From an uncultured Actinomycetota bacterium (GTDB lineage: Bacteria > Actinomycetota > Humimicrobiia > Humimicrobiales > Humimicrobiaceae): DNA of 64,000 nucleotides. Each line of letters starts with the position of its first letter. Position 1 is the stretch's first letter. A program made the translations under genes and the position numbers. The notes below the pieces were generated by a model, which was not told where the DNA came from, did not search any database, and saw only the letters and a program-made list of their open reading frames with translations. Of the stretch, positions 4,725 through 49,155 are shown one piece after another. Location of the stretch: NCBI GenBank assembly GCA_964578625.1, contig CAZODQ010000001.1:23401-87400 (forward strand). The letters are read 5' to 3'.

Positions 4725-4744
4725 CTACTGTCAATCTCCATTAA

Positions 4745-5422: not shown

Positions 5423-5457
5423 ATTTATATTCTGTCTTTTAGGACTTCTTTTTTTCT

Positions 5458-6270: not shown

Positions 6271-6279
6271 AATTATCCA

Positions 6280-7311: not shown

Positions 7312-7349
7312 ACCCGATCATTACTTTTAATATATTTCCTGCAGCCGGC

Positions 7350-27399: not shown

Positions 27400-27780
27400 C
27401 TAATTCTTTATGTTCATTTCAATATCATCACAATCAATATAATTATCACGATAAGTTGCCCTGAACTTTATTAAAGAATTACCGGGAGTGCTGCCCTTAA
27501 GTTTCACAATTAGATTAATCTTACCGTTCCCTTTTATTACATATGAATCACTTACCCACATATATATACCATTACTCAAGCCGGGATACTGATTAATATA
27601 TCCATCAAGGCTTACTCCTTCAAATCCAATATTATCCGGGAGTTCTAATTCGAGAGAACTGATTTTAGCATCATACTCATTGGTGTTTCTTATAATATAT
27701 TCAACAGTAAATTCCTCTCCGATTTCCTTGGTATAATCGTCAACCATATATTCAATTTTGATACTCCTATCCAGATTTAA
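27400..27780. repeat. About 0.38-kb DNA-level repeat (copy 1) encoding the shared DUF11-like C-terminal domain
   Basis: Nucleotide similarity is visible between 27400-27780 and 29013-29395. For example, 27548-27600 cccacatatatataccattactcaagccgggatactgattaatatatccatcaagg matches 29166-29222 cccacatatacataccccggctcaagccaggatcctgatcaatatatccggaagg. Confidence 0.7.
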
Positions 27781-29012: not shown

Positions 29013-29395
29013 TTAATCTGTTATTTCCATTTCAATATCATCACAGTTAACATAAACCTCATTTGTAGTCAACCTAAACTTAATAGGTGACTTTCCCGGC
29101 TTGGTACCCCTAAGTTCTACAATTAAATTTATTTCATCTTCTCCCTCAATAACATATGAATCACTGACCCACATATACATACCCCGGCTCAAGCCAGGAT
29201 CCTGATCAATATATCCGGAAGGAATTGTTCCTATAAATTTAATATTATCCGGAAGCTCCAGTTCAAGCGAGCTGATTTTAATGCTTTTTTTATTCTTATT
29301 ACTGATTATATATTCAACGGTAAATTCCTCACCATATTTTCTACTGTAACTATCGCTGTAGTAATCTATTTCCACATTCACGACAGTTTCATTGA
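29013..29395. repeat. About 0.38-kb DNA-level repeat (copy 2) encoding the shared DUF11-like C-terminal domain
   Basis: See copy 1. The encoded peptides share GEEFTVEYII.N.N...KISSLELELPDNI.F....GYI.Q.PGLS.G.YMWVSDSYVI.G...INLIV.L.G..PG.S.IKFR.....Y..CDDIEM.I. Confidence 0.7.
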
Positions 29396-30902
29396 CCTTA
29401 TAAAGTTTTAATGTTTCATCGTATCTATCCCAGGTATAAGTTTTTCCTACCTGTTCGGCATCAAATATGGATAACAATGCATTATTATTGCCTACAAAAT
29501 ATACAGTAATGCCGTCATCCAGAGATTTAATCATATCCTCAACCGTATATTCAGGAACCTTATGAGAAATATACTCTATATTTTTTTCACCATATTCATA
29601 TCGATCTACAAACATTCCTATATTGGTTGATTTCGCCAGAACATATACTTTGGAATTACTCTCCATGTTACTGAAAGCTTCGTCCCAGAATTTGTAAACA
29701 TCCGGGGGCTCCGAAAGATCAAGTTTATTATAATTTTTCATAATAAAGTATAATGGCAGAAAAGTAAAAAATAAGATCAATATGACCATTACAAAATATT
29801 TTAAAAAGTTACTAATTTTCGGGATTTTACTGTTCTTAATCAATTTATCAAAAAGAAATATTGACCTATTTAGTATAAATAACATTCCAAATGCTATATA
29901 AAAAGAAAAAACAATCATGGAATTAAGCAGATAATTACGGAGCGCATGACCTGCGTAAAGAGGTGGTATAATAAAATTTAAAATTACCAGCAAAAATGTA
30001 CAAAGGCTAAACTTTAAATTTTTTCTAATTAAAAAGATAAATCCTATCAACGCTATAATTAGAAGTACGATACCATAACTCTGGTAAACCATATTAAGAT
30101 AATCTTTCAATACCTTGAGGATCAATGAAAGATTTTTATCACCAAAACTTCCTCCATGAAGTTCACCTGTTACTTCCCTCCCCATTATATAATAAAAAAA
30201 TCTCAAAGGAGTGGTTACTCCTCCATAACCTTGAAGGGACCTTATAGGAAGATATAAATATGATAGAAGAGGTAGAATAAAATATAATATACTGAGAAGG
30301 ATTGCCTTAATGCTTTTAAAAATCCGTGGATTTACAATAATTACATATAAAACAATGGCCGGAACCAGAAAAAAAGCAAGAGGATGATTGGTCAAACTTA
30401 AACCGAGACAGAAAGAGAAAAAATATAAATATTTTCTTGTTTTATTTTCTTTATAAATAATTGCCGAAAAAAACAACAAAACTATAAAAAAACTGTTTAA
30501 TGTATCAAATTCCAGCCTATTTGCCACTTCCCAGAAAGGCACAATAAAAGCAAATATCATAGAGCTTATAAAGCTTATAAACTCATTTTTTACCAGTTTA
30601 TTTATTGAAAGAAATAAAAATAATAGGGTAAGCGCACCAAATACTGCAGAAAAAAGATTAAGCCTGTAAGCAAGATCAGCAATAGGTAAAAAAGTGAAAA
30701 GTTTCTCCAATAAGGAGAAGGTCGGATACCCGGTGGGCACCATTAAACTCATTTCAGTAACCTGAAGTGCATACCAGCTGGTATCTCCCCCGATTAATTT
30801 ATGCTCCAATGTGAGTATATAAATAACTAGTGGTATAAGAAAAGAGAAAACCGCAAATATGACTTTTTTCTTACCAATAAGGAATTCTTTGATTTTTTGC
30901 AT
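29013..30902 (-). CDS. GT-C superfamily integral membrane glycosyltransferase (ArnT/PMT-like or DUF2723-like) with C-terminal extracytoplasmic DUF11-like domain
   Basis: 629 aa. About 11 hydrophobic segments in the first ~400 aa, with an early Asp-containing loop (IGGDTSWY) as in GT-C enzymes that use polyprenyl-phosphate sugar donors. The C-terminal soluble domain is shared with the CE4 protein. Confidence 0.5.
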   Translation of the reverse strand: MQKIKEFLIGKKKVIFAVFSFLIPLVIYILTLEHKLIGGDTSWYALQVTEMSLMVPTGYPTFSLLEKLFTFLPIADLAYRLNLFSAVFGALTLLFLFLSINKLVKNEFISFISSMIFAFIVPFWEVANRLEFDTLNSFFIVLLFFSAIIYKENKTRKYLYFFSFCLGLSLTNHPLAFFLVPAIVLYVIIVNPRIFKSIKAILLSILYFILPLLSYLYLPIRSLQGYGGVTTPLRFFYYIMGREVTGELHGGSFGDKNLSLILKVLKDYLNMVYQSYGIVLLIIALIGFIFLIRKNLKFSLCTFLLVILNFIIPPLYAGHALRNYLLNSMIVFSFYIAFGMLFILNRSIFLFDKLIKNSKIPKISNFLKYFVMVILILFFTFLPLYFIMKNYNKLDLSEPPDVYKFWDEAFSNMESNSKVYVLAKSTNIGMFVDRYEYGEKNIEYISHKVPEYTVEDMIKSLDDGITVYFVGNNNALLSIFDAEQVGKTYTWDRYDETLKLYKVNETVVNVEIDYYSDSYSRKYGEEFTVEYIISNKNKKSIKISSLELELPDNIKFIGTIPSGYIDQDPGLSRGMYMWVSDSYVIEGEDEINLIVELRGTKPGKSPIKFRLTTNEVYVNCDDIEMEITD

Positions 30903-30939: not shown

Positions 30940-31278
30940 CTATAAATTAAATATTATGACTCCTGCAATAACCAAAATATTTCCTAAAACCCTTAATCTG
31001 TCAACATCTTCTTTAAGAACTCTCCATGAAAACAACATAACAAAAAAGTAGCTTAATGCAGTAAAAGAATAAAAATTTGAAAAATCAATCACTCTCATAG
31101 TGATTATGGAAAGTATTGGAACCAGTAAAAATAAAAATATGCTTATCAATAGATATTTATTCTTAAAATTATAAATTAAAGGCTTTTTAAAATCTAACCT
31201 GATAGCTCCCATTTTAAGAATAACCTGAGCCAGAGCGACCAGTAACTGGATAGTGACTGCTAAAAAAATATAAAGCAT
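30940..31278 (-). CDS. Small 4-TM DMT/SMR-like membrane protein (ArnE/ArnF-like)
   Basis: 112 aa. ...WRVLKEDVDRLRVLGNILVIAGVIIF. Adjacent to a second paralog and to GT-C and GT2 genes. Confidence 0.5.
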   Translation of the reverse strand: MLYIFLAVTIQLLVALAQVILKMGAIRLDFKKPLIYNFKNKYLLISIFLFLLVPILSIITMRVIDFSNFYSFTALSYFFVMLFSWRVLKEDVDRLRVLGNILVIAGVIIFNL

Positions 31279-31281: not shown

Positions 31282-31656
31282 TCAGACTCCTTCCAGCTTT
31301 TTACTGGACATGGTTATAATAATAACTCCGGACACTATTACAGCGGAACCTATTATTTTCATTAAAGTGATGTCTTCCCCAAATAAAATCTTCCCCAAAA
31401 ACAATGAAAAAAAGTAATTTAAACTTAAGAACGGATATATAAAAGACAGCTGAAATTTTCTATGCAGAATAAGCCAGAATGTAAATTTCAAACCGTAGGT
31501 CAGTATAAGAACAGATAACCAAAGGATAAAAATACTTGAGATATTAAGATTTATACCAATATATTTACCCGCTATTATACTTAATAAACTAATGCTGATA
31601 TTAAGGATGATTATAAGGATATAAAAAAATTTTTTACTGGTGTCTCTAAATTTCAT
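31282..31656 (-). CDS. Small 4-TM DMT/SMR-like membrane protein (ArnE/ArnF-like)
   Basis: 124 aa. ...ILFGEDITLMKIIGSAVIVSGVIIITMS. Forms a pair with 30940..31278, like ArnE/ArnF heterodimers. Confidence 0.5.
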   Translation of the reverse strand: MKFRDTSKKFFYILIIILNISISLLSIIAGKYIGINLNISSIFILWLSVLILTYGLKFTFWLILHRKFQLSFIYPFLSLNYFFSLFLGKILFGEDITLMKIIGSAVIVSGVIIITMSSKKLEGV

Positions 31657-31901: not shown

Positions 31902-32858
31902 ATGATAAAGAAATTATTAGTGGCAATTCCTGCCTACAATGAAGAAGAAAAAATAGGTGAAGTAATACAAAACACCCCAAAAAAAATTGAAGGTGTATCT
32001 AAAGTCCATATACTGGTTATTGATGATGGCAGCACAGATAAAACTGTAAAAATTGCCAGGGGTTTACGTGCAGAAGTTATAAAAAATTATCACAATATGG
32101 GATACGGAGTAGCGTTTGGCAAAGCCCTGCAATATGCAGTGGATCATGACTTTGATTTAATGGTCAGTATTGACGGAGATGCTCAATTTGATCCAAAAGA
32201 TATTCCCAAACTTATTAGTCCGATTATAAAAGATGAAGCCGATCTGGTAACTGCATCAAGATTTATCAATAAAAGCTATTACCCTAAAATGCCTTTATCC
32301 AAATTCTGGGGGAATAAGTTAATGTCAATTTTAATCAGTAAACTGATCGGTAAAAAATTTTATGACGTCTCATGCGGATTCAGAGCATACTCACAAAAAA
32401 CTCTGCTTTCGCTAAATCTTCATGGAAAATTTACTTTTTCTCAAGAAACCTTTATTGACCTGTCATTCAAAGGGCTGAAGATCCTGGAAATCCCTATAAA
32501 GGTCAGATACTTTCCTTCACGAGTTTCAAAAATTTCCTCTAATCTTTTCACATATGGAATAAATGCTCTTAAAATTATTATTGAGACTTACCGTGACTAT
32601 AAGCCGTTTACTTTTTTTTCCTATATTGCCCTCTTCTTTTTTATAATAAGTATCTTTTTCGGATCAATTTTACTGTATACATATATTTCAATAGGATCAT
32701 TCCATCCAAATGTCTGGTCAGGATTTGTGGGAGGTACTTTCCTTTTTATCTCCATTATTTTTTTTATAGTCGGCATATCAGCAGATATAATCAAAAGAAT
32801 AAGAGTTAACCAGGAAGAAATTTTATATCTCTTAAAAAGAAATTCTCAAAGAAAATAA
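31902..32858 (+). CDS. GT2 polyprenyl-phosphate sugar synthase (ArnC/DPM1/GtrB-like) with C-terminal TM helices
   Basis: 318 aa. LVAIPAYNEEEKI...VIDDGSTDKT...DGDAQFD and two C-terminal TM helices (FFSYIALFFFIISIFFGSILLY; FLFISIIFFIVGISADI), the ArnC/GtrB architecture. Confidence 0.75.
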   Translation: MIKKLLVAIPAYNEEEKIGEVIQNTPKKIEGVSKVHILVIDDGSTDKTVKIARGLRAEVIKNYHNMGYGVAFGKALQYAVDHDFDLMVSIDGDAQFDPKDIPKLISPIIKDEADLVTASRFINKSYYPKMPLSKFWGNKLMSILISKLIGKKFYDVSCGFRAYSQKTLLSLNLHGKFTFSQETFIDLSFKGLKILEIPIKVRYFPSRVSKISSNLFTYGINALKIIIETYRDYKPFTFFSYIALFFFIISIFFGSILLYTYISIGSFHPNVWSGFVGGTFLFISIIFFIVGISADIIKRIRVNQEEILYLLKRNSQRK

Positions 32859-33155
32859 TTTAATAATACAACTTATACTTAAGATAATTTAAGTCAAATA
32901 AAATAAAAAATAGTATAATATTAAAAATGAAAAGAATTTTGTTTATAAAAATACTATATTACCTTTTTTATACATCTGTCTTTCTACTTGCATTAATCGT
33001 TTTCTTAGAAATTACAAAATTTAATTTCTATAATAATTACCTGAAAGATTTTTTTAATAAAATTTTTAGTATCTTAAATTTCTAATATTATTCTTATCCT
33101 GTTTTCTTAAATAAAGACATTTACAAATTTATTTTTAATGAAATAATACCAGTTT

Positions 33156-34553
33156 ATGAAGATATTTCTTTTATTTACTGAGATAAATCAAAAATTCGGA
33201 CCTTTATACTATCAGCATGGGCTGGCTTCTATTTCAGCCTTACTTAAAAAAAATGGAGTCCGATCCATCTCTCTAATACACTTTACCAGGGAACCCAATC
33301 TTAAAAAATGGGAGTCGCATATTAAGGAACAAAAACCAGACTTAATAGGTATTTATTCGACAACAGAGCAGTTTCACTTCATAAAGGGACTTGTCGGTAA
33401 AGTCCCCCGGGGCATATTTACAATTTGCGGAGGACCACACCCCACCTCTTATCCAATGTGCATTGAAGATATTCCACGATTGGATGCAATTTGTATAGGA
33501 GAGGGAGAGTATCCCGTATTAGAACTGGTAAATTCTTTAAAAGAAGGCAGAGATTATAGCAAGATAAAGAATCTATGGGTCAGAAAAGATGGGAATATTA
33601 TAAGGAATAAAACAAGACCGTTTATAACTGATTTAAATGAACTCCCATTTGAAGACCGTGAACTTTTCAATCACCAGAAATCGATTGACAAGTATGGTTT
33701 TGCACAGGTGCGGGTATTAACAACCAGAGGCTGCCCATACCAATGTACTTATTGTGCAAACAGGCAGATAAGTAAATCTCAGCCCGGAAGTTATGTCCGC
33801 TTCCGTTCTGCTGTACATATCATGGATGAGTTAAATTACCTTAATAGAAAGTATAAGTTCAAGGAAATCTTCTTTGATGACGATATTTTTATGATGAATA
33901 GAACAATCCGCAAGAAATTTTGTGAAAGATATCCAATGGAAATTGGCAAACCTTTCGTTTTCAGCGGATATATTAATATTTGCAATGAAGAAATGCTAAA
34001 AGAACTGAGAGAAGCAGGCGGGCGTAGAATCGATTTTGGTGTAGAATCCGGTAATGAGGAACTGCGGCAAAAAATCTTAAAGAGGAATATGACAGACATA
34101 CAAATTTTAGAAACTGCAAACATGGCCAGGAGAATCGGATTTCAGATTAAAACTCTGAACATGGTCGGGCTTCCCGGAGAAACCATTGAGAAACATCTGG
34201 ACACTGTAAATCTGAACAATGAAATAAAACCGGACGTAGCAAGCATATTCATATTCTATCCTTATCCCGGTACAGAATTATATGAATATTGTATCAAAAA
34301 GGGATATTTTAATCCTGATGAACCTCTGCCCAAAGGGTATATTTCACGGAGAAATTCATTACTTGATCTTCCTGATTTTTCTAGAAATGATATCGCGAAA
34401 TGTTTCCAGAGATTTGGGTTCCGTGTTTTTAAGAAGATTTCTGTAATGAAAGCTATTGAATATGCTGTCATATATTCTAAACATGGTGAACTTATTATGA
34501 GGATTACTTCAAAGCTTCGGAATATAATCATTAAGTTACTGCCAGGATTTTAA
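33156..34553 (+). CDS. B12-binding domain radical SAM protein (class B radical SAM)
   Basis: 465 aa. N-terminal cobalamin-binding-like Rossmann region (IGIYSTTEQF...ICGGPHPTSYP...DAICIGEGE) followed by the radical SAM cluster motif CPYQCTYC. Confidence 0.75.
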   Translation: MKIFLLFTEINQKFGPLYYQHGLASISALLKKNGVRSISLIHFTREPNLKKWESHIKEQKPDLIGIYSTTEQFHFIKGLVGKVPRGIFTICGGPHPTSYPMCIEDIPRLDAICIGEGEYPVLELVNSLKEGRDYSKIKNLWVRKDGNIIRNKTRPFITDLNELPFEDRELFNHQKSIDKYGFAQVRVLTTRGCPYQCTYCANRQISKSQPGSYVRFRSAVHIMDELNYLNRKYKFKEIFFDDDIFMMNRTIRKKFCERYPMEIGKPFVFSGYINICNEEMLKELREAGGRRIDFGVESGNEELRQKILKRNMTDIQILETANMARRIGFQIKTLNMVGLPGETIEKHLDTVNLNNEIKPDVASIFIFYPYPGTELYEYCIKKGYFNPDEPLPKGYISRRNSLLDLPDFSRNDIAKCFQRFGFRVFKKISVMKAIEYAVIYSKHGELIMRITSKLRNIIIKLLPGF

Positions 34554-34602
34554 TTTCTTCCCTGATTTAAAATAACTACCTGGTGAGATTTTTTATAGAA
34601 CA

Positions 34603-35643
34603 TCAAATATTTTGATTTTTATGATCATTTGATATTTCCGGTTTTATTCTTTTAGACCTGCCTTCAAAATAGGGTCTTGCAGTATATATAATTCCCCCCA
34701 GTACTCCCATTAGAACTATCATAAACAATATCAGAAGAGAACATAAAGCAGCTTTCTCGTTAGTAACCCCCATAGCTACCAGAATAAAGACCAGAGAATT
34801 TTCCCTCAATCCGATACCGCCAATGGAAATGGGGATCATGGCTATTATTGCCACTATCGGCACAATAAAAATAAATGCGGTCAAGCTTAGGTTTATTCCT
34901 AGGGCTCTGGCTGCTAAAAACCAGTTAAGTATAACTGAAAACTGAAGAAGAAAACTGAATACCAGCACTACGACAAGAGCTTCCTTATACTTTTTAAAAC
35001 TCAACAGGGTCTTATAAACATTAGACAGCTTTTCATTTATTTTACGCATAAATTTAAACTTATTGGAAATCTTACCCAATCCGAAAAAAGAAGGATTGAT
35101 AATAAGGAAAGCTATGATCACAGTTATTACGAAAAATATGACAATTGGAATTATTACCGACCGGTGGCCGATAGCCGTAAATCCTAAAAATAAAGCTATA
35201 ACCGCATAAATAGCTGCGCTTACCACTCCGGAAAATCTTTCAACTATGATCACTGAAACAGATTTTCCCATAGGAATGTCAGCTTTTTTTGAAGCATCAT
35301 AACTCCTGAATACATCTCCTCCTATACTGGTAGGTAAAAAATTATTAAAAAAAGAGCCAATAAGAACTGTAACACTCAATGAAGCAGTACTTAATCTTAC
35401 ATCCTGCGTATTTAAAAGAACCTTCCATCTCACAGCAGTTATATAGGTCCCCAGAGCATGAGTGGAGAGCGAAAGTAAAAGTAAGACTTTATTTGATGAT
35501 TTCAAAATCTCAATTATACTGGAGAAATCTTTCATTTGTGTCTTAACCAGAAAAGCAATAAGGGAAGCACTGATTATGACTCTGGCTAAAAGAAGTATTA
35601 TCTTCTTATTTTTTATGTAAAAAGAGACGATCCTATTTTTCAT
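34603..35643 (-). CDS. Flippase-like polytopic membrane protein (LPG_synthase_TM / PF03706-like)
   Basis: 346 aa, about 8 TM. Central NFLPTSIGGDVFRSY motif characteristic of this family. Paralogs at 41009..42025 and 50496..51581. Confidence 0.55.
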   Translation of the reverse strand: MKNRIVSFYIKNKKIILLLARVIISASLIAFLVKTQMKDFSSIIEILKSSNKVLLLLSLSTHALGTYITAVRWKVLLNTQDVRLSTASLSVTVLIGSFFNNFLPTSIGGDVFRSYDASKKADIPMGKSVSVIIVERFSGVVSAAIYAVIALFLGFTAIGHRSVIIPIVIFFVITVIIAFLIINPSFFGLGKISNKFKFMRKINEKLSNVYKTLLSFKKYKEALVVVLVFSFLLQFSVILNWFLAARALGINLSLTAFIFIVPIVAIIAMIPISIGGIGLRENSLVFILVAMGVTNEKAALCSLLILFMIVLMGVLGGIIYTARPYFEGRSKRIKPEISNDHKNQNI

Positions 35644-35666
35644 TTTTAATCGAATCAGCTGTTTAA

Positions 35667-36410
35667 TTATTTTCTAAATTTGGCAACTCTTGCGGGTACT
35701 CCTGCAGCTATAGAGAAAGGCGGAATATCTTTTGAAACTACAGCGCCTGCTGCAATAATGGTATCTTTTCCAATAATAATACCGTCAAAAATCAAAGCGC
35801 CTGCACCTATCCAGCAATTCTTTTTTATCTTTATGCCATAAGAAGGCTTTTCCTGCTCAGATATGGGAACATCTATTCTGGAATACTCATGTCCACCACC
35901 AATAATATAAACATATGCGGAAATTAATGTATTTTCACCAATGGTTACATTACTTGCCGAAATTATCTCACAGTTAAATCCTATAACTACATTTTTTTCC
36001 AGTACTATATCGCCATTTTTACAGCTTAATATACTGCCTCTGCCTATAAAAATATTTCTTCCTATGCTAATTCCATTGTTGTCCAGTCCTTTGGCATCGA
36101 GAACACAATAATCATCTATTACTACATTATCTTCAATGGATATTTTATGAGGATGCCTTATAGTTACAGACTTCCCAAAACTGACTCCCTTCCCTACTTT
36201 CTTAAAAAGCAAGGGAAAGAATAAATTTCTAAAAAAGATACCAATAGCTCCAGGCATGTCCTGAAACAGTGTAATTATCAATTCATATTTCAGTAAACTA
36301 AAAAAACCTTTTTTCCCTACAAATAAATCTATATATTTGGCAATTTTTGACCTATCTCTGGCAAAAAGCGTTTTCTGTATCTTGTCTTCATATTTTTCTA
36401 TTTCAATCAA
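35667..36410 (-). CDS. Hexapeptide-repeat (left-handed beta-helix) sugar O-/N-acetyltransferase
   Basis: 247 aa. Tandem hexapeptide repeats (IGRNIFIGRGSILSC, VVIGFNCEIISASNVTIGENTLISAYVYIIGG, IGAGALIFDGIIIGKDTIIAAGAVV). Confidence 0.75.
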   Translation of the reverse strand: MIEIEKYEDKIQKTLFARDRSKIAKYIDLFVGKKGFFSLLKYELIITLFQDMPGAIGIFFRNLFFPLLFKKVGKGVSFGKSVTIRHPHKISIEDNVVIDDYCVLDAKGLDNNGISIGRNIFIGRGSILSCKNGDIVLEKNVVIGFNCEIISASNVTIGENTLISAYVYIIGGGHEYSRIDVPISEQEKPSYGIKIKKNCWIGAGALIFDGIIIGKDTIIAAGAVVSKDIPPFSIAAGVPARVAKFRK

Positions 36411-36536
36411 CTCCTTTTCCGATAATAAAGAATAAGCTCTAAAAAATTAAATAAAACACTTCTTTCCAGGACGAGTAAAACTGCAATCGGTTTAATAAAT
36501 TAAAGCTGCCTTCTTCTTTAGCTGAAATATCTTTTC

Positions 36537-37535
36537 TTAGTTTCTTAAATGATCCCTTATAAAAATTCCAAGATATTCTAAAGGAATACCCAAAAAAGAT
36601 TTCCTCCCGATCCTATCGCAATCCCTGCAGGGAACTATATTATCAATTATACTAGATTTAAATGCTTTTCTTATACTCCTTATAATTTCATTATTAAAAA
36701 TTTCATCAATCCTGCTTTCATTAATATCCCCCAGACAGATTTTACCCTCAAAATCCTGGGGACATAAGAATACCCTTCCATCATAAAATATAGTCAGCGA
36801 GTACCACGGAAAAGTGCAGGAAGTGACTTTTTTATCTTTAATTTTTTTATCAATTCCGCCTGTTTTAAACAGGCCCCCCCAATTATGAGGGGCTCTTGTT
36901 ACCATTTTATCCAGAGGAAGATCCTTAAAATTCTTTAAAAAATTTTTCTTTTGTTCTGCCAACTTTTTTTTAGATGGTCCTGACTCATTCTGTATGACCT
37001 GGATAACTGTATACGGCTTTTTTGATTTTAACTGTTTTTTTATTTTAAGAAAATCAATTATATTGGTTAAACTCTCATCAAACCTTGCACCAGACCTGTT
37101 TCTTTCATACACTTCTTTGGTATAACCATCAAATGAGAACGAAATAAAGTCCAGGCCTGCTAATATCATGTCTTTGCCAAGTTCTTTATCCAAAAGAGTA
37201 GCATTGGTATGAATTCTGGTTTTAACTCCACTTTTACCGGCATAAGCGATCATTGGTATTATATTGTTATTGAGCAGCGGCTCTCCTCTATGAAATAAAT
37301 TGACATCTTGGACTTTCCCCGCGATTTCATCGATTATTCTTTTATAAAGATCGAAACTCATATCCCCTTTTTGATATGGCAGAAGGTTTTTATTCACGCA
37401 AAACCGGCACTTTAAATTACATCTGCTTGATAATTCTATCCATATTCTGATGGGATGATAATTACAATTCGTCTTTTTAAAATAGTAATTTATATAAATC
37501 CTAAGCAGATCAAGAACACGATTTAACTTACTCAT
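36537..37535 (-). CDS. Radical SAM / SPASM-domain protein
   Basis: 332 aa. CNLKCRFC CxxxCxxC motif near the N-terminus. Cys-rich C-terminal region (TSCTFPW...LCPQD...VPCRDCDR) consistent with an auxiliary Fe-S (SPASM/twitch) domain. Confidence 0.75.
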   Translation of the reverse strand: MSKLNRVLDLLRIYINYYFKKTNCNYHPIRIWIELSSRCNLKCRFCVNKNLLPYQKGDMSFDLYKRIIDEIAGKVQDVNLFHRGEPLLNNNIIPMIAYAGKSGVKTRIHTNATLLDKELGKDMILAGLDFISFSFDGYTKEVYERNRSGARFDESLTNIIDFLKIKKQLKSKKPYTVIQVIQNESGPSKKKLAEQKKNFLKNFKDLPLDKMVTRAPHNWGGLFKTGGIDKKIKDKKVTSCTFPWYSLTIFYDGRVFLCPQDFEGKICLGDINESRIDEIFNNEIIRSIRKAFKSSIIDNIVPCRDCDRIGRKSFLGIPLEYLGIFIRDHLRN

Positions 37536-37548
37536 TATAAGTTCATAT

Positions 37549-38523
37549 TTACTTTAGAATCATTTCCTTTACCACGTATGTAGATCTATTTCGAACTTCA
37601 TGATGTACCCGCATAAGCACTTCTGCAAGAAGCCCCATAGTAATAAGCTGGATTCCTATAAAAATCATAAATATTGACAGGATAAATAACGGTCTCTCCG
37701 AAAGGGGTTGATTGAAAAATATCCTCATTATAATCAGGTAAGCAGTCATGATAAAACCAGCAGTAGCTGAAAATAATCCCAGCACTCCGAATATCTGGAT
37801 CGGACTCTGCGAATAACTTAAAAGAAATTTTACTGTGATTATATCAAGAATCACCTTTATAGTCCTGGATACTCCATATTTGGATCTTCCATACTTTCTG
37901 CTGTGATGTCTCACAGGAACCTCCGCCACCCTTACTCCCATCCAGCTTGCTATGGCAGGAATATATCGATGCATTTCACCATACAGGTCAATATTTTTTA
38001 TCACTTCTCTCTTGTATGCCTTTAGGGTGCACCCATAATCATGAAGATAAACTCCGGTAAGCTTTGATATTATTCTATTTGCAATAATTGAGGGGAACCT
38101 CCTGGTAATAGCTTTATCTTTTCTATTCACACGCCATCCGCTTACAATATCATAACCTTCATTTAACTTCTCCAGTAGAAGTGGTATATCACGTGGATCA
38201 TTTTGTAAATCTGCATCCAGAGTTATTATGACTTTGCCCTCTGCAAAATCAAAACCTGCGCTAATAGCTGATGTCTGTCCGAAATTTTTTCTAAAACTGA
38301 TGATTTTAAACAATTTATTTTCATTATTGACGTTTACAAGTTCATTAAAAGTGCCATCTGTACTTCCATCATCTATTAGCAGCACTTCATACTTCAAAGT
38401 CATCCCGGAGAGAGTTTTATAAAGTTCTTTATAAAGTTTTAAAATACTTTCTTTTTCATTATAAATAGGAATGACAATAGATAGATCAATGTCAGATTTA
38501 AGTTTTTTTGAAACTTTATTCAT
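37549..38523 (-). CDS. GT2 polyprenyl-phosphate sugar synthase (ArnC/DPM1-like) with C-terminal TM helices
   Basis: 324 aa. LSIVIPIYNEKESI...LLIDDGSTDGT...DADLQNDP, then two C-terminal TM segments. Overlaps the downstream SDR gene by 8 nt. Confidence 0.8.
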   Translation of the reverse strand: MNKVSKKLKSDIDLSIVIPIYNEKESILKLYKELYKTLSGMTLKYEVLLIDDGSTDGTFNELVNVNNENKLFKIISFRKNFGQTSAISAGFDFAEGKVIITLDADLQNDPRDIPLLLEKLNEGYDIVSGWRVNRKDKAITRRFPSIIANRIISKLTGVYLHDYGCTLKAYKREVIKNIDLYGEMHRYIPAIASWMGVRVAEVPVRHHSRKYGRSKYGVSRTIKVILDIITVKFLLSYSQSPIQIFGVLGLFSATAGFIMTAYLIIMRIFFNQPLSERPLFILSIFMIFIGIQLITMGLLAEVLMRVHHEVRNRSTYVVKEMILK

Positions 38524-39493
38524 TTAAAAAGCCTTTTTCTTTTTTTTCTTTATACCATCTTATGAATTTGGTCAAACCCTCATTAATATTAGTCTCAGGA
38601 AAATATTTTAACATTTTTCTTGCTTTTCTAATATCTGCATAAGTCATAAAGACATCACCCGGCTGTCTGTTTATAAACTTTAAGTTTGCTTTTTCTCCTG
38701 TGACAGTTTCGATTAATCTCACCAGATCTATTAATTTAATGGTGTTTGAATTTCCCAAATTGATAATTTCAAAACCTTTTATTCTGTCCAGACTGTTAAC
38801 CACACCGGAAATTACATCATCAATATAAGTATAATCCCGTGAAGAAGAACCGTTGCCATATATTTCTATCTGCTCTCCGTTCAGTATCTGCCGGGTAAAT
38901 TTATGTATAGCCATCTCCGGCCTCTGCCGCGGGCCGTAGACCGTAAAAAATCTAAAACAGAAAATTGATATCTTATACAGACTGTGATAGGTGTAACAGA
39001 TCAGCTCTCCTGCTTTTTTAGTGGCAGCATATGGAGATACGGGATGGTCAACATTATCATCTTCTGAAAAAGGGATTTTCTTGCTCTCGCCATAGACAGA
39101 AGACGACGAAGCAAAGATAAATTTTGGAATATTATATTTTTTACAGCATTCCAGTAAATTCATAGTCCCAAGAACATTTACCTTCTGGTATAAAAGAGGA
39201 CTTTTTATCGATGGCCTCACACCGGCCTTTGCTGCCAGATGAATCACCATTCCTATATCATTTTTTAAAAATATTTTTTCCAGTTGGTCCAGATTACAGA
39301 TATCCAAGCGATAAAGCTTGAAATTATTGTTATTAATAACTCCCCGGATGTTGTCTTCTTTTATTTCAGGGCTGTAAAAGTCATCAAAGTTGTCAATACA
39401 GATTATTTTAAATCCCAGATTTATTAATTTTTCACAGAGATAAGATCCAATAAATCCTGCTCCGCCGGTTACTATAATATTCATTATTTTCAA
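38516..39493 (-). CDS. NAD-dependent nucleotide-sugar epimerase/dehydratase (SDR extended family)
   Basis: 325 aa. TGGAGFIGS Rossmann motif, YAATK YxxxK catalytic motif. Confidence 0.8.
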   Translation of the reverse strand: MKIMNIIVTGGAGFIGSYLCEKLINLGFKIICIDNFDDFYSPEIKEDNIRGVINNNNFKLYRLDICNLDQLEKIFLKNDIGMVIHLAAKAGVRPSIKSPLLYQKVNVLGTMNLLECCKKYNIPKFIFASSSSVYGESKKIPFSEDDNVDHPVSPYAATKKAGELICYTYHSLYKISIFCFRFFTVYGPRQRPEMAIHKFTRQILNGEQIEIYGNGSSSRDYTYIDDVISGVVNSLDRIKGFEIINLGNSNTIKLIDLVRLIETVTGEKANLKFINRQPGDVFMTYADIRKARKMLKYFPETNINEGLTKFIRWYKEKKEKGFLNE

Positions 39494-39888: not shown

Positions 39889-41004
39889 ATGAAGATAGGA
39901 ATTATGTTAAGGCATATAAACGAATTAGGAGGAATAGCAGTCTACACTAAAAATCTTATTGGAAAACTGCTGGAGATCGATAAAAGGAATGAATATGTTT
40001 TTTTATATAATACTTATTCTCTGGTAGGCACTTATTCTAAATATAAAAATGTTAAAGAAGTAGTCATAGATACACCGAATAAACTGCTCTGGGATCAAAT
40101 CGGAGTGCCCAAGGTGGTCAAATCAGAGAATATTGATATAATATTTAATCCAAAATTATCCATTCCGGTGTTTACTCCTTCTAAAAAGGTATTCACTCTT
40201 CCCGGATTAGAACAGTTTGCCTTACCCAATGTGTTCAAATGGTACGATCATATATATTTTCGCATAATGATACCTCTCTATTGCCATCGTTCAAATGCAA
40301 TTATTGTTATGACAAACACAGGCAAGAACGATTTAATGAAATATATCAATGTAAATAGGAATAAAATAGAGGTTATATACGGGTCTTGTCATAAGAGATT
40401 CAGATTCACAAAACAAATAAAAAATATCCTTAGGATAAAGAAAAAATATAATCTCCCTGATAAATATATACTTTTTGTAGGTGGAATAACCCCGCTGAAA
40501 AATTTTTCAAATATTATTAGAGCATTTAACATAATAAAGAACAAAATTTCCATCAAATTAATTGTAGTCGGATTCAAAAGATGGAAATATGCTAAAGACA
40601 TATGCTTAATAAATAAACTCGATTTACAAAACGATATAATAACTCTTGGATTTATTTCGGATGATGATCTTCCTTATCTTTACAATTCAGCTCAGTGTCT
40701 TGCATTGCCCTCTCTATATGAAGGTTTTGGCATACCTATACTGGAAGCTCAGGCCTGCGGATGTCCGGTTATTTGTTCAAAAACAGGATGTGCCCCGGAA
40801 GTTTCCGGCGGAGCAGCATTATTGGTAGATCCATATAACTATAAAGAAATAGCACAGGTAATGTATGATGTTTTAAGTGATATAGATCTAAGAAAGAAGC
40901 TTATAGCAGCCGGATTGGAAAATGTAAAAAATTTCAGCTGGTTGAAAGCTGCTGAGCAAACTTTACAATTATTTAAAAAAATTTCTCAATCTAAATCTGT
41001 TTAA
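39889..41004 (+). CDS. GT4 (Glycos_transf_1) glycosyltransferase
   Basis: 371 aa. LPSLYEGFGIPILEAQACGCPVICS E-x7-E-type motif. Confidence 0.8.
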   Translation: MKIGIMLRHINELGGIAVYTKNLIGKLLEIDKRNEYVFLYNTYSLVGTYSKYKNVKEVVIDTPNKLLWDQIGVPKVVKSENIDIIFNPKLSIPVFTPSKKVFTLPGLEQFALPNVFKWYDHIYFRIMIPLYCHRSNAIIVMTNTGKNDLMKYINVNRNKIEVIYGSCHKRFRFTKQIKNILRIKKKYNLPDKYILFVGGITPLKNFSNIIRAFNIIKNKISIKLIVVGFKRWKYAKDICLINKLDLQNDIITLGFISDDDLPYLYNSAQCLALPSLYEGFGIPILEAQACGCPVICSKTGCAPEVSGGAALLVDPYNYKEIAQVMYDVLSDIDLRKKLIAAGLENVKNFSWLKAAEQTLQLFKKISQSKSV

Positions 41005-41008
41005 CTTT

Positions 41009-42025
41009 ATGAAACGTAGATTTAATTTTATTTTCAAAAGACCCCTTGAATTTTTAAAACGCAGGAAACGCATATTTAATTTCATTATCCAATTAGTAGT
41101 CAGCATTATACTGATAACTCTATTATTGCGCTGGGTAAATATTGGTGATATGATCTCCCTTTTTAAAAATATAAATATTTACTATTTCATTCTTCTTTTA
41201 GCCCTTGTTACCCTTGATAGAATCTTCATGGCATATAAATGGCACCTGTTGCTTAAGATAAAAGATACAAGTATTTCTTTAGTAAGTGCTATAAGGACCT
41301 ACTACATAGGAACATTCATAGGTTCTTTTCTACCCACTACAGTCGGCGGAGATATAGTTCGGGTCTTAAAATTGCATAGTGAAAAACGAAAAGGGACTGA
41401 CGTATTATCTTCTGTAATACTGGAAAGGATGTTAGGTTTTATAGCCTCCGCCGTTTTAGCTCCAATTGCAGCTTTGTTTTTAATATCTTTTTTTAAACTG
41501 AATATAGGGCGTTTTCTGGGAATAGCAGGAGTATTATTATTTCTCTTTATCATATTAATGTTAATTCCATTTAGCGAAGCTATATTCCGGAAAATAGATA
41601 AAAACGAGAAGTTATCCAGAAATTTTTTATTTAATAAATTTAGAAATCTTTATCTATCCTATGCGAAATATAAAAATAATAAAAATATACTCATCCTGTT
41701 TTTAGCTCTATCTATTTTGGAACAGTTGGTACCGGTAATCGGTAACTACCTGGCTAGCCGAGCATTAAACCTATCCATACCATTTGTATACTTTCTACTT
41801 ATAGTCCCCCTGGTGCAGCTTATCTCAAGAATTCCTATTTCCTTCGAGGGATTTGGAGTCAATGAAGGACTTCTGGTATACTTTTTCTCTTTGCTGGGCC
41901 TTTCCAAAACAGGTGCTTTTACTATAGGGCTGCTTGGCCATATTGCAATTATTATTGCTACCCTACCAGCTTTGTTCTTCTATTTTAAAGATATTAAAAC
42001 TTCTTTCGATCAGGTCAAGCATTAA
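41009..42025 (+). CDS. Flippase-like polytopic membrane protein (PF03706-like)
   Basis: 338 aa. GSFLPTTVGGDIVRVLK motif. Paralog of 34603..35643 and 50496..51581. Confidence 0.55.
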   Translation: MKRRFNFIFKRPLEFLKRRKRIFNFIIQLVVSIILITLLLRWVNIGDMISLFKNINIYYFILLLALVTLDRIFMAYKWHLLLKIKDTSISLVSAIRTYYIGTFIGSFLPTTVGGDIVRVLKLHSEKRKGTDVLSSVILERMLGFIASAVLAPIAALFLISFFKLNIGRFLGIAGVLLFLFIILMLIPFSEAIFRKIDKNEKLSRNFLFNKFRNLYLSYAKYKNNKNILILFLALSILEQLVPVIGNYLASRALNLSIPFVYFLLIVPLVQLISRIPISFEGFGVNEGLLVYFFSLLGLSKTGAFTIGLLGHIAIIIATLPALFFYFKDIKTSFDQVKH

Positions 42026-42156
42026 TATTAAGCAGACATAGAATATAAATTGAAAACAATAGAATTTAAGTTAAATTTAATGTATATTTACATAAATAAT
42101 TACTAGTAAACTGGAATATTTTCTAACAATAATTACATCATTATAATTTAAAAGAG

Positions 42157-43476: not shown

Positions 43477-43478
43477 CA

Positions 43479-44468: not shown

Positions 44469-44630
44469 AAAATAATTTTACATGTTTTTCCGGCAGAAAT
44501 CTTTCCTATTAATACTAAATGTTATAAAATATCGGAAACGATTTCGTGAGAATTTTTAATAGTTTGAAAAATTACTTTATCATTTAAACTGGTTAACTGC
44601 TATTAAATTCTTTAAGGAAAGGAAGAAAAA

Positions 44631-45614: not shown

Positions 45615-45687
45615 AAATAGATAACCAATATTCAAATTTTTATATCAGTAAGTAAAATTTATAAAATAATATTCAGGAATTAATATT

Positions 45688-49148: not shown

Positions 49149-49155
49149 TTTTTCC

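Follow-up and report, generated by a model that had tools for sequence, protein, structure and literature searches.

The locus lies in a window of 64,000 nucleotides, by which we mean the whole stretch of DNA analysed, and its source is an uncultured low-GC bacterium. Between about 9.7 and 63 kb, the window carries a large glycan island, in which more than ten glycosyltransferases, rmlD and Wzm/Wzt (with a Wzt_C domain) are encoded. At 33156-38523 and the adjoining SDR gene, all six genes are uninterrupted open reading frames, and the six-gene cluster of the preliminary description was borne out by the ORF list, Pfam and homolog alignments in its reading frames, domains and quoted motifs. Five of these genes form a minus-strand operon. 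The first encodes an SDR epimerase/dehydratase resembling UDP-uronic acid 4-epimerases (38516-39493; Pfam Epimerase 216 bits; PDB 5u4q 274 bits, 6zl6 241 and MoeE5, 6kv9, 182), and its end overlaps by 8 nt the start of an ArnC/GtrB-type polyprenyl-phosphate GT2 (37549-38523), which scores 250 bits across the whole NCBIfam ArnC model (equivalog cut-off 529) and PgfS at 184 bits, with C-terminal transmembrane helices at 241-306. After 13 nt follows a 332-residue radical SAM enzyme with a twitch domain (36537-37535), then an O-acetyltransferase with a left-handed beta-helix (LbH) of the LacA/Maa/WcaF group (35667-36410; Pfam Hexapep 52.3 bits, WcaF family 89 bits; top PDB matches LacA 65 bits, Maa 61 and polysialic acid O-acetyltransferase 54). 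The last gene, 23 nt further, encodes PF03706a, a PplT/UPF0104 membrane protein of the MprF flippase-domain type (34603-35643; LPG_synthase_TM/PF03706 148.9 bits, TIGR00374 flippase-like 94 bits, about eight transmembrane segments), so the twitch enzyme is encoded between a polyprenyl-phosphate GT2 and a flippase-like protein. PF03706a is convergent with the gene for the other radical SAM enzyme, a 465-residue B12-binding protein of class B type from an uncharacterised subfamily (33156-34553, plus strand); the two radical SAM genes thus lie on opposite strands and in separate transcription units.

The content of the cassette stands as first proposed, but its boundaries do not, as the functional unit reaches well past both ends. 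Upstream of the B12-binding radical SAM gene lie the gene for a single-pass membrane protein of 52 residues (32927-33085, plus) and that for GT2a, a polyprenyl-phosphate hexose synthase of the AglJ/DPM-like type (31902-32858, plus; Glycos_transf_2 87 bits; AglJ model, full length, 120 bits with a cut-off of 325) with two C-terminal transmembrane helices at 234-300. On the minus strand there are two small four-helix EamA-type proteins like the ArnE/ArnF flippase subunits (30940-31278 and 31282-31656; EamA 29.6 and 24.2 bits; ArnF/ArnE models 25-38 bits, under their cut-offs), a PMT_2/TMEM260-like GT-C glycosyltransferase with about 11 transmembrane segments (29013-30902; PF11028 82 bits, PF13231 31 bits), predicted to use a lipid-phosphate-sugar donor outside the membrane, and a polysaccharide deacetylase (27400-28992; CE4/PF01522, Polysacc_deac_1 81 bits; NCBIfam PgaB/IcaB-like), anchored by one N-terminal transmembrane segment and carrying a CARDB-like domain. 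The deacetylase and the GT-C share a C-terminal domain of 120 residues that is 62% identical.

On the other side, a plus-strand operon at 39889-47553 was overlooked in the preliminary description, as was GT2a. It begins with a GT4 glycosyltransferase (39889-41004; Pfam), followed after 4 nt by a second flippase-like protein, PF03706b (41009-42025; Pfam), which is 29% identical to PF03706a; the window encodes three PF03706 proteins. Next come a TviB-like UDP-GlcNAc 6-dehydrogenase (42157-43476; NCBIfam TviB 452 bits) and, 2 nt on, a TviC-like 4-epimerase (43479-44468; TviC 275 bits), an SDR of the HpnA/OleD/3beta-HSD-like type (44631-45614; HpnA 149 bits) and an AsnB-like amidotransferase (45688-47553; NCBIfam XrtA-system amidotransferase 522 bits). 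No aminotransferase, and no UDP-glucose dehydrogenase as a source of UDP-GlcA, was found in the window. Both radical SAM enzymes lack transmembrane segments and are predicted to be soluble; the two GT2s sit in the membrane, as do the flippase-like proteins. The two GtrB/ArnC-type GT2s, the flippase-like proteins and the GT-C, as classified by Pfam and NCBIfam, uphold the lipid-carrier glycosylation context proposed earlier.

The B12-binding enzyme matches Pfam Radical_SAM at 79.4 bits and B12-binding at 43.7 bits (gathering cut-off 32.1), and its GGPH.T motif (G92, G93, P94, H95, T97) and C193/C197/C200 are invariant in homologs. The enzyme's N-terminal domain can be aligned to the cobalamin domains found in MgmA, OxsB, CysS and TokK, in keeping with the B12-binding signature first noted, and among PDB profiles the matches are AprD4 (108 bits), MgmA (82), OxsB (60), CysS (55) and TokK (43). 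The predicted structure (pLDDT 92) has AprD4 as its top fold match (TM-score 0.70-0.72). The Pfam B12-binding match alone does not prove that the enzyme uses cobalamin; AprD4 is not known to need it. No curated NCBIfam subfamily fits, the best model being HpnJ at 155 bits against a cut-off of 577.6. C-methylation had been deduced from class B membership, which does not follow, as AprD4, the nearest solved structure, is a diol dehydratase of the carbohydrate/aminoglycoside type, and HpnJ, the nearest curated family, is a proposed ring-contraction enzyme, with lipid-linked glucosamine as proposed substrate, that co-localises with MoeK5 and Fom3 in a sequence-similarity network (PMC9204698). Because the enzyme falls in no curated subfamily and HpnJ and AprD4 are its nearest relatives, C-methylation is merely one of three plausible chemistries. 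We favor it tentatively, at somewhat less than even odds; some other chemistry appears possible, a rearrangement or ring contraction rather doubtful, and dehydration more doubtful still.

The second radical SAM enzyme (Radical_SAM 59.7 bits; SPASM 47.9, cut-off 21.5) had been called SPASM-type. Beyond the invariant C39/C43/C46, its C-terminal domain has just four cysteines that are invariant in homologs (C240, C258, C303 and C306), indicating a BtrN-like twitch domain rather than a full SPASM domain, predicted to hold one auxiliary 4Fe-4S cluster. BtrN, invoked earlier as precedent, is indeed the top solved relative both by sequence (73 bits, E 2e-19, with a gap-free alignment of the twitch domain) and by fold (E 2.6e-13, TM-score 0.72 on target), followed in the fold comparison by SuiB, DesII, SkfB and BlsE. 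With BtrN, DesII and BlsE as best solved relatives of the twitch enzyme and AprD4 of the B12-binding one, and with no RiPP family cut-off approached, both look like small-molecule or sugar enzymes rather than peptide maturases, as had been supposed.

The gene arrangement exceeds chance, because it is syntenic in relatives, recurs in distant lineages and shows enriched neighbors. Full synteny at 72-80% identity is seen in four related metagenomic contigs (L088, L090-L092), and parts of the module occur in distant lineages of 31-67% GC, with 42-61% identity in other phyla. The order GT2a to B12-binding radical SAM is held in L088 and L091-L094, the GT-C in L088, L092, L094 and L172, and the GT4-PF03706 pair in L088, L170 and L171, the last two of which also have the twitch and B12-binding enzymes. 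L172 retains SDR-GT2-twitch-Hexapep-PF03706. In L008, from a Thermodesulfobacteriota MAG, and L099, AsnB-GT4-twitch-SDR on one strand face a B12-binding radical SAM gene and a second one followed by Hexapep-PF03706; an SDR of the HpnA/OleD-like type and AsnB lie near the B12-binding orthologs in these two loci and in L092. A Verrucomicrobia-labelled MAG (L004/L005), the high-GC contigs L002/L003 and L089 combine the B12-binding enzyme with PF03706, AsnB, Hexapep and PMT_2. We compared neighbors in loci of at least 12 kb between orthologs of the B12-binding enzyme (45-71% identity, n = 13) and paralogs (<36%, n = 58). Hexapep genes occur near 9 of the 13 orthologs versus 1 of the 58 paralogs (Fisher p = 9e-8), PF03706 genes, found beside orthologs in many lineages as PF03706a homologs, 9 versus 3 (p = 2e-6) and AsnB genes 8 versus 4 (p = 4e-5); with duplicate contigs removed, the p values are 2e-6, 3e-5 and 6e-4, respectively. 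Partner genes are sparse around some orthologs: L001 and L101 lack any Hexapep, PF03706 or AsnB homolog within 10 kb, and in L006 a PF03706 and a PMT_2 gene lie only at a distance of 4-7 kb. The twitch gene occurs near only 3 of the 13 distant orthologs; it is a variable partner, and the pairing of the two enzymes is not obligate.

Because no enzyme of the module reaches an equivalog cut-off, we infer all substrates. With a probability of roughly 0.5, the conserved module builds on a membrane lipid carrier, and exports, a chemically tailored sugar that probably derives from a uronic acid and is modified before flipping. The SDR and dehydrogenase enzymes would supply an NDP-uronic acid of the UDP-GalA or UDP-GalNAcA type; the ArnC-like GT2 and GT2a would load sugars onto polyprenyl phosphate, and for the GT4 the acceptor may be a glycerolipid, as for GpgS. 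Modification would take place at the cytoplasmic membrane face. There the twitch enzyme, by abstracting a hydrogen atom, may oxidize a secondary alcohol or bring about a dehydration or a decarboxylation, perhaps with an SDR as its partner. O-acetylation of the sugar would fall to the LbH enzyme and amidation of the carboxylate to the AsnB-like one, and the B12-binding enzyme might perform MoeK5-like C-methylation, HpnJ-like ring contraction or AprD4-like dehydration. The 52-residue protein may anchor this soluble enzyme at the membrane. Flipping of the lipid-linked sugar would be the task of the PF03706 proteins, the ArnE/F-like pair or both. The GT-C would then transfer it to an extracytoplasmic acceptor, on which the deacetylase, with its shared C-terminal domain, would also act. 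Gene order is only suggestive of radical SAM action at the lipid-linked rather than the nucleotide-linked stage.

That action might instead fall on cytoplasmic UDP- or dTDP-sugars in soluble form, with the radical SAM enzymes, SDRs, acetyltransferase and AsnB as tailoring enzymes, the GT2s and GT4s building the sugar into a Wzm/Wzt-exported polysaccharide, and PF03706 and GT-C as unrelated decoration. We consider this unlikely, albeit the most serious alternative: the solved relatives BtrN, DesII (a TDP-sugar enzyme), BlsE and AprD4 use soluble substrates, both radical SAM enzymes are predicted soluble and the surrounding island fits polysaccharide synthesis, but it is PF03706, Hexapep and AsnB, rather than polymerizing glycosyltransferases or ABC transporters, that are most conserved as neighbors of the B12-binding enzyme in different phyla, the twitch gene sits between a polyprenyl-phosphate GT2 and a flippase-like gene, and the top curated match, HpnJ, has a lipid-linked proposed substrate and groups with MoeK5. 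It is improbable that one or both enzymes modify a hydrocarbon chain, e.g. methylate or cross-link membrane lipids or the polyprenol carrier, as do the hopanoid methylases HpnP/HpnR, GDGT-modifying radical SAM enzymes and the ladderane-associated B12-binding one. Matches to lipid enzymes exist (NCBIfam ladderane-type 80 bits, HpnR 54; GDGT-MAS at 22-36 bits in the PDB lists of both enzymes), the SDR at 44631 resembles OleD, HpnA and sterol 3-dehydrogenases, and PF03706 proteins handle lipids; against this, those matches are far weaker than the sugar-enzyme ones, the conserved partners are a UDP-uronate-epimerase-like SDR, a sugar O-acetyltransferase, an AsnB-type amidotransferase, GT2 and GT4, and isoprenoid or fatty-acid genes are absent from the window and related loci.

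The 52-residue protein bears on the earlier statement that no precursor peptide was seen nearby: a conserved small ORF, overlooked before, does adjoin the B12-binding radical SAM gene, but neither radical SAM enzyme comes near any peptide-maturase (RiPP) cut-off in NCBIfam. The ORF, which the public gene calls listed for L088 lack, is exactly 52 codons long and gap-free in 11 other loci (in L094 via tblastn only). Its substitutions are distributed over the three codon positions as 716/312/995, as in coding DNA. In 10 other loci it adjoins the B12-binding radical SAM gene, upstream or downstream and in two orientations, as a substrate of that enzyme might, and models for ApyD (116 bits, B12-binding enzyme) and sactipeptide/ranthipeptide maturases (38-52 bits, twitch enzyme) do score. 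These scores are nevertheless far under cut-offs of 340-750 bits, the 21-kb locus L172 retains the ORF with no B12-binding radical SAM gene, and the neighbors are glycosylation genes only, with no peptidase, RiPP-recognition element or exporter. The product, a single hydrophobic transmembrane helix and a short tail with no Cys, is of fixed length and conserved throughout; among 1.84 billion proteins it forms four 50%-identity clusters of 52-53 residues, with no fusions. Maturation of it as a peptide is thus very improbable, and we regard it as a candidate for a protein that partners the B12-binding enzyme at the membrane or tethers it there. Least probable of all is a chance juxtaposition of two radical SAM genes from separate pathways: their opposite strands and variable co-occurrence outside the close lineage would suit it, but the synteny, the recurrence in other phyla of very different GC and the highly significant neighbor enrichment have already largely refuted it.

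The preferred reading, assembly of the sugar on a lipid carrier, points to an unusual cell-surface sugar, with the same module in other phyla. The tie to PF03706 lipid-flippase systems had been missed. PF03706 is a lipid-flippase domain found beside lipid glycosyltransferases (bioRxiv 2022.03.11.483950; GpgSDF, PMC12713373; HexSDF, PMC10128005), and its stand-alone members, GpgF and HexF included, are putative flippases (PMC12713373, PMC10128005). The GT4-PF03706b pair, a synthase followed by a flippase-like protein, is ordered like GpgS/GpgF in these systems (GpgSDF, PMC12713373; HexSDF, PMC10128005).

The six genes of the cassette put forward in the preliminary description are all uninterrupted open reading frames and a Pfam domain search backs every assignment, so the cassette itself can be taken as real. 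It comprises a 465-aa radical SAM enzyme with a B12-binding domain (B12-rSAM, 33156–34553, + strand) and, on the − strand, a PF03706/LPG_synthase_TM membrane protein (PF03706a, 34603–35643, 148.9 bits), a hexapeptide-repeat transferase (Hexapep, the LbH acetyltransferase, 35667–36410), a second, 332-aa radical SAM enzyme (twitch rSAM, 36537–37535), an ArnC-like GT2 (37549–38523) and an extended SDR recognised by domain search (SDR_38516, 38516–39493).

Gene content, relatedness and conservation of the locus are observed directly, and the cassette is a piece of a larger set in four transcription units. The − strand genes form one of them, unit B, read in the order SDR_38516, ArnC-like GT2 (8-nt overlap), twitch rSAM (13-nt gap), Hexapep (126 nt) and PF03706a (23 nt). 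The B12-rSAM ends unit A (+), following a second GT2 (GT2a, 31902–32858) and a 52-aa gene (orf52, 32927–33085); it converges with PF03706a, their stop codons lying 49 nt apart. Divergent from unit A is a set encoding two small 4-TM EamA-type proteins, a GT-C of the PMT_2/TMEM260-like kind, a membrane-anchored CE4 deacetylase and a GDSL/DUF11 protein. Unit C (+), divergent from unit B, encodes a GT4, a second PF03706 protein (PF03706b, 41009–42025) separated from it by 4 nt, TviB-like and TviC-like enzymes, an HpnA/OleD/3beta-HSD-like SDR and an AsnB-type amidotransferase. Transmembrane segments are predicted in the GT2s, the PF03706 proteins and the GT-C, and in neither rSAM.

The whole set lies within an envelope glycan island extending from about 9.7 to 63 kb of the window, with many GT2 and GT4 genes, rmlD, a third PF03706 gene and Wzm/Wzt. 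Tryptophan biosynthesis genes at 2668–8852 (−; a TrpB-like PALP enzyme, TrpD and TrpE) mark its left border. The third PF03706 paralog (50496–51581) adjoins two proteins without a Pfam match (48435–50472) and an 835-aa GT2+GT4 fusion (51638–54145); three such paralogs thus occur within 17 kb, PF03706a and PF03706b being 29% identical. The Wzt/Wzm pair at 57947–60149 (−), in which Wzt joins an ABC ATPase to a Wzt_C carbohydrate-binding domain, has several GT4 genes on its flanks, along with two large GT2+GT4 fusions (51638–54145 and 54409–56775), and this neighbourhood is an ABC-transporter-dependent glycan pathway inside the same island. Scans of the window for tRNAs and Rfam families gave no matches, and promoter and terminator scans gave scores no better than those of shuffled sequence.

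The twitch rSAM matches Radical_SAM and, at 47.9 bits, the Pfam SPASM family, and had been labelled SPASM-type on first reading; the cysteine pattern shows that label to be wrong. Among 24 homologs of 52–86% identity, C39, C43 and C46 of the radical SAM core are invariant, as are C240, C258, C303 and C306 in the C-terminal part. These four are the only invariant C-terminal cysteines, a fifth (C269 of the window protein) varying among the same homologs. Four ligands imply one auxiliary cluster and therefore, by definition, a twitch domain; a full SPASM domain with two auxiliary clusters needs seven to eight conserved C-terminal cysteines (CX9-15GX4C ... CX2CX5CX3C ... C). The Pfam SPASM match falls on the shared twitch portion, and the NCBIfam twitch model NF033640 matches residues 238–308. 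All NCBIfam models fall well short of their cut-offs; the highest score comes from a tungsten-cofactor maturase that matches the N-terminal half only (102 bits vs 380).

The precedent originally cited for this enzyme, BtrN, is confirmed as its best solved relative. BtrN is the butirosin 2-deoxy-scyllo-inosamine dehydrogenase and the founding twitch-domain rSAM. With a family profile it scores 73 bits (E 2e-19); the radical SAM core and the twitch domain both align, with all four auxiliary-cluster cysteines matched without gaps. In a fold search with the AlphaFold model (pLDDT 80), BtrN again ranks first (E 2.6e-13, TM 0.72 on target), ahead of SuiB, DesII, SkfB, BlsE and anSME. Unlike BtrN, the window enzyme has an extra N-terminal helix and an insert at 220–235 (low model confidence), and its setting is one of lipid-carrier glycosylation (GT2, SDR, LbH, PF03706) rather than aminoglycoside biosynthesis. 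Orthology with BtrN is rejected, given a fold-alignment identity of 19%, a length greater by about 80 residues and the absence of aminoglycoside genes nearby.

For the B12-rSAM, an HMM search bears out the initial assignment. Radical_SAM scores 79.4 bits (cut-off 29.5) and the N-terminal B12-binding domain PF02310 43.7 bits (gathering score 32.1); the GGPH.T motif is invariant in its homologs, and C193, C197 and C200 of the radical SAM motif CX3CX2C are invariant in 24 of them. In the structural model (pLDDT 92) residues 1–130 alternate strands and helices, and this stretch can be aligned to the cobalamin domains of MgmA/QCMT (PDB 9ccb; PMC12931638), OxsB, CysS and TokK, the GGPH being matched to that of TokK. 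Cobalamin binding is thus suggested by a domain-level signature. The best fold match is AprD4 (TM 0.70–0.72), then MgmA, TsrM, CysS, OxsB and TokK. AprD4, which is not known to use cobalamin, is also the best solved match by family profile (108 bits), over the radical SAM core only (positions 186–392).

The best NCBIfam model is HpnJ (TIGR03471), matched over nearly the full length at 154.9 bits vs a cut-off of 577.6, and among the 25 best of 43 matched families the enzyme reaches no curated cut-off. Other scores against cut-offs are 116/750 for ApyD, 111/481 for BchE, 88/600 for PhpK, 54/650 for HpnR and 61/500 for AprD4, and P-methylase, MgmA-type and ladderane-type models all fall below the HpnJ score. 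Orthology with HpnJ is rejected on this score and on the absence of hopanoid genes from the window. In a published similarity network HpnJ is grouped with MoeK5 and Fom3; it is proposed to catalyse ring contraction of lipid-linked glucosamine, and MoeK5, a C-methylase of moenomycin biosynthesis, is classed as a single-methylation B12-rSAM (PMC9204698). The step from class B membership to C-methylation taken in the preliminary description is therefore unsupported, the closest curated family being HpnJ and the closest solved match AprD4; the reaction could plausibly be a methylation, a ring contraction or other rearrangement, or a dehydration like that of AprD4. By these scores both rSAMs are members of uncharacterised subfamilies, and recent reviews of B12-rSAMs include no envelope-glycan member among those covered.

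How far the module is conserved was assessed by comparing related loci on other contigs and MAGs (L001–L172). A scan of GTDB representative genomes with generic patterns returned mostly paralogs below 40% identity, and a metagenome scan with ortholog-specific patterns was more useful. Each rSAM has more than 100 homolog clusters, at 39–82% identity for the B12-rSAM and 52–86% for the twitch rSAM, nearly all from metagenomes or MAGs; related proteins come from MAGs labelled Actinomycetota/Actinobacteria (e.g. RBG_19FT_COMBO_36_27) and Chloroflexota. Synteny is complete at 72–80% identity in four loci (L088, L090–L092). L172 retains SDR-GT2-twitch-Hexapep-PF03706 together with GT-C, AsnB and deacetylase and has no B12-rSAM within 21 kb. 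Two further loci (L170, L171) hold the twitch rSAM, GT4-PF03706, a B12 paralog of 41–42% identity, PMT_2 and deacetylase. In a Thermodesulfobacteriota MAG (L008, 50% GC) and in L099, AsnB-GT4-twitch-SDR(HpnA-like) occupy one strand and B12, a PD40 protein, a second B12 paralog, Hexapep and PF03706 the other. L107 has the twitch rSAM followed at some remove by B12-SDR-Hexapep-PF03706-GT2-GT4. Six loci from a Verrucomicrobia-labelled MAG and unlabelled contigs (L002–L005, L089, L105; 56–67% GC) combine PF03706, B12, SAM-methyltransferases, AsnB and Hexapep; very large PMT_2 proteins are added in L002–L005 and not in the other two, and none of the six has a twitch rSAM. Around the B12 orthologs of L001 and L101 such partners are absent, and in L006 the PF03706 and PMT_2 genes lie no closer than 4–7 kb.

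Enrichment was calculated with Fisher's test on loci of at least 12 kb, comparing B12 orthologs (45–71% identity, n = 13) with paralogs (<36%, n = 58). Hexapep lies near 9/13 orthologs and 1/58 paralogs (p = 9e-8; 2e-6 with duplicate contigs removed), PF03706 near 9/13 and 3/58 (p = 2e-6; 3e-5) and AsnB near 8/13 and 4/58 (p = 4e-5; 6e-4). The core around the B12-rSAM therefore consists of a PF03706 protein, an LbH acetyltransferase and an AsnB-type amidotransferase plus a glycosyltransferase, often with an SDR. The twitch rSAM was found near 3/13 orthologs and 4/58 paralogs (p = 0.11), and obligate pairing of the two rSAMs is rejected on this count. Judged from these neighbourhoods, the twitch rSAM is a frequent yet dispensable addition to the B12-rSAM module, and in the low-GC lineage it is tied to the SDR and ArnC-like GT2 pair.

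The comparison also brought several observations at the margins of the module. L008 (9306–10709) and L099 (12969–13805) carry, besides the ortholog, a second B12-rSAM that is 49–50% identical to the window enzyme and lies directly upstream of Hexapep-PF03706; some lineages therefore run the module with two B12-rSAMs. More distant paralogs (28–38% identity) sit beside AglJ-like GT2s in DPANN archaea (L011, L012, L026, L081, L084), and those of L048 (Saccharibacteria), L030 (Omnitrophota) and L026 lie near SPASM/twitch rSAMs; the pairing of a B12-rSAM with a lipid-carrier GT2 may be much broader than this clade. Genes for PD40/Tricorn-like beta-propellers recur near the module, both in the low-GC lineage (window 20499–22481 and 23159–24937; L088, L170–L172) and in the Thermodesulfobacteriota locus L008 (8028–9164).

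The enzymes around the rSAMs would suit a uronic-acid-type sugar and a membrane route. SDR_38516 matches PDB entries 5u4q (274 bits), 6zl6 (241 bits), which we take to be the Bacillus cereus UDP-glucuronate 4-epimerase, and MoeE5 (182 bits), a moenomycin-pathway epimerase (PMC3814723). In unit C the NCBIfam scores are 452 bits for the TviB-like UDP-GlcNAc 6-dehydrogenase, 275 bits for the TviC-like 4-epimerase and 522 bits for the AsnB-type amidotransferase, the last against the model for the XrtA-system amidotransferase. Among PDB entries, sugar O-acetyltransferases (LacA, Maa and polysialic acid O-acetyltransferase) resemble the LbH enzyme most. Among the glycosyltransferases, GT2a is AglJ/DPM-like (AglJ model 120 bits) with two C-terminal TM helices; the ArnC-like GT2, also with C-terminal TM segments, matches the ArnC and PgfS models over their full length and below their equivalog cut-offs (ArnC 250 bits, cut-off 529). 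The GT-C (29013–30902) has about 11 TM segments and scores 82 bits to PF11028 (cut-off 24.2) and 31 bits to PMT_2 (cut-off 26.1). The two EamA-type proteins resemble ArnE/ArnF weakly (25–38 bits; cut-offs 92 and 99), and the PF03706 proteins are alternative candidate flippases. We infer that the CE4 deacetylase (27400–28992) faces outwards, because it is membrane-anchored by one N-terminal TM segment. A 120-aa C-terminal domain is common to the GT-C (residues 510–629) and the deacetylase (residues 411–530), with 62% identity and no gaps, which suggests that both have the same extracytoplasmic target. Adjoining the deacetylase is a 606-aa protein (25489–27309, −) that combines DUF11/CARDB repeats with a GDSL/SGNH hydrolase domain at its C-terminus; it is kept in L088 and L172 and could be an extracytoplasmic O-acetyl esterase or transferase.

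The initial reading, which saw no precursor peptide nearby, overlooked orf52. The gene lies between GT2a and the B12-rSAM, and the public annotation shown for L088 lacks it too. In 11 other loci (in L094 by tblastn only) its length is likewise exactly 52 aa, with no gaps. Substitutions at codon positions 1, 2 and 3 number 716, 312 and 995, with 490 synonymous codon differences, which is the pattern of a real coding sequence. Its place is directly upstream of the B12-rSAM gene in eight close-lineage loci and directly downstream of a B12 paralog of 39–41% identity in L110, L116 and L171; in L172, whose locus has no B12-rSAM, it adjoins PF03706. Its product has one hydrophobic helix, a conserved tail of about 22 aa and no cysteine, and a search of 1.84 billion representative proteins returned four small clusters and no fusions to other domains. 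A small gene beside an rSAM might be taken for a RiPP-type precursor, the substrate of peptide maturation by one or both rSAMs, but all RiPP NCBIfam models fall far below their cut-offs for both enzymes and the only adjacent small ORF encodes this conserved, Cys-free, single-TM protein. On these two grounds the peptide-maturase reading is rejected as highly improbable, and we read orf52 as a probable membrane partner or tether of the B12-rSAM.

The best reading of the locus is the tailoring of a uronic-acid-type sugar on a membrane lipid carrier, with chemistry, substrate and step order that we infer from sequence and from analogy. In this respect the lipid-linked sugar tailoring of the preliminary description is retained; its C-methylation and SPASM components are not established. 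The cytoplasmic rSAMs, the acetyltransferase and the amidotransferase would modify the sugar after its loading onto the carrier. The two GtrB/ArnC-type GT2s would use polyprenyl phosphate as that carrier, and the GT4 might use a glycerolipid. The product would be flipped by PF03706 proteins, by the ArnE/F-like pair or by both, and transferred by the GT-C. Modification on the carrier is reasonable because ArnD tailors an undecaprenyl-phosphate sugar and MoeK5 and, as proposed, HpnJ act on lipid-linked sugars. The rSAMs might instead act on soluble nucleotide sugars; BtrN, DesII, BlsE and AprD4 are soluble-substrate precedents, and we regard this main alternative as unlikely, though well short of implausible. 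Carrier-linked tailoring, taken in its full form, would be an undescribed pathway spanning several phyla (low-GC Actinomycetota- and Chloroflexota-labelled MAGs, Thermodesulfobacteriota and Verrucomicrobia-type bacteria), in which a B12-rSAM, tethered by orf52 in some lineages, and the twitch rSAM act on a lipid-linked uronic acid or uronamide by C-methylation, ring contraction to a carbocycle, deoxygenation or decarboxylation, followed by PplT/PF03706 export and surface display by the GT-C. We tentatively assign this full form a probability of about 35%.

From its sequences, we classify the system as one of lipid-carrier glycosylation or glycolipid export with added rSAM tailoring. To our knowledge, rSAM reactions have been thoroughly described on antibiotic sugars and on the head groups of hopanoids, whereas no comparable documentation exists for the lipid-carrier systems that glycosylate bacterial envelopes. 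If the proposal is true, this would be the first case known to us in which rSAMs modify a sugar bound to a lipid carrier as part of primary envelope biogenesis, and it would define a substrate class for stand-alone PF03706 proteins. The module provides a concrete conserved gene set in which to seek a new branched, deoxygenated or carbocyclic surface sugar, a substrate of the putative stand-alone PF03706/PplT 'flippases' and a role for the overlooked 52-aa protein. Its occurrence in uncultured anaerobic lineages, whose envelopes are hardly known, points to unexplored cell-surface chemistry, and envelope biogenesis there is possibly cobalamin-dependent.

Several known systems resemble parts of the locus. 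The hopanoid side-chain module HpnI/HpnJ/HpnK/HpnL also places a GT2, a B12-rSAM, a deacetylase and a PF03706-family protein around a lipid-linked amino sugar. However, GT2a is AglJ/DPM-like, with no HpnI match at E ≤ 0.01 and HpnB (21.6 bits) as its only hopanoid-associated match; PF03706a matches only the generic TIGR00374 model; and the window deacetylase is a membrane-anchored CE4/PF01522 protein. Neither squalene-hopene cyclase nor other hopanoid genes were found in the window. Moenomycin unit F is formed with MoeGT1, the AsnB-like MoeF5 and the B12-rSAM C-methyltransferase MoeK5, and we know of no other pathway that joins a uronate 4-epimerase, transfer of a uronic acid to a lipid phosphate carrier, carboxamide formation by an AsnB-type enzyme and B12-rSAM methylation of the lipid-linked sugar. 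The likeness to the window lies in SDR_38516, which resembles the UDP-GlcA 4-epimerase MoeE5 in the structure search, and in the conserved presence of AsnB near the B12-rSAM; MoeF5, MoeGT1 and MoeK5 are compared by their described roles. Moenomycin is, however, a secondary metabolite built on a phosphoglycerate-isoprenoid lipid, whereas the locus belongs to an island for envelope glycosylation that includes ArnC-type GT2s, a GT-C and flippase-like proteins, and its twitch rSAM and acetyltransferase have no place in the moe pathway. In apramycin C3' deoxygenation, AprD4 and AprD3 act as rSAM diol dehydratase and SDR reductase; an SDR directly beside B12-rSAM orthologs or paralogs in L008, L099, L107 and L170 recalls this rSAM-plus-reductase logic, but AprD4 aligns only to the window rSAM core, whereas the window N-terminal domain aligns with true cobalamin domains.

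Three-component systems, namely ArnC/ArnD/ArnE-F/ArnT, GtrA/B/C, RgtE with the Rgt GT-Cs and streptococcal PgfS/E/M, share a general plan with the locus, in which an ArnC/GtrB-type GT2, an SDR epimerase and a CE4 deacetylase occur with a GT-C and two small flippase-like membrane proteins. In the Arn system, ArnD deformylates the sugar while it is on undecaprenyl phosphate; flipping by ArnE/F and transfer by ArnT follow. To such a plan the window adds two rSAMs, the LbH acetyltransferase and PF03706 proteins, all of which the Arn, Gtr, Rgt and Pgf systems lack. PF03706 is the MprF flippase domain, widespread as a stand-alone protein or fused to GT-A/GT-B (bioRxiv 2022.03.11.483950). In two operons studied by experiment, HexSDF of C. 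difficile (PMC10128005) and GpgSDF of P. aeruginosa (PMC12713373), a glycosyltransferase, a deacetylase and an MprF-flippase-domain protein yield an amino-sugar-modified membrane lipid, flipping being putative. The window's GT4, PF03706b and CE4 deacetylase may represent a similar architecture, the comparison being one of architecture and not of HexS, GpgS, HexF or GpgF sequences; here, however, the deacetylase is 11 kb away, the operon adds uronic-acid and amidation enzymes and the locus has rSAMs. Every equivalog test applied to the locus failed at the NCBIfam cut-offs, and the literature searched yielded no report of PF03706 with a glycosyltransferase, of a B12-rSAM with undecaprenyl, or of an rSAM with O-antigen and C-methyl. 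Across these comparisons, the locus joins in one place features that no single one of the compared systems combines.
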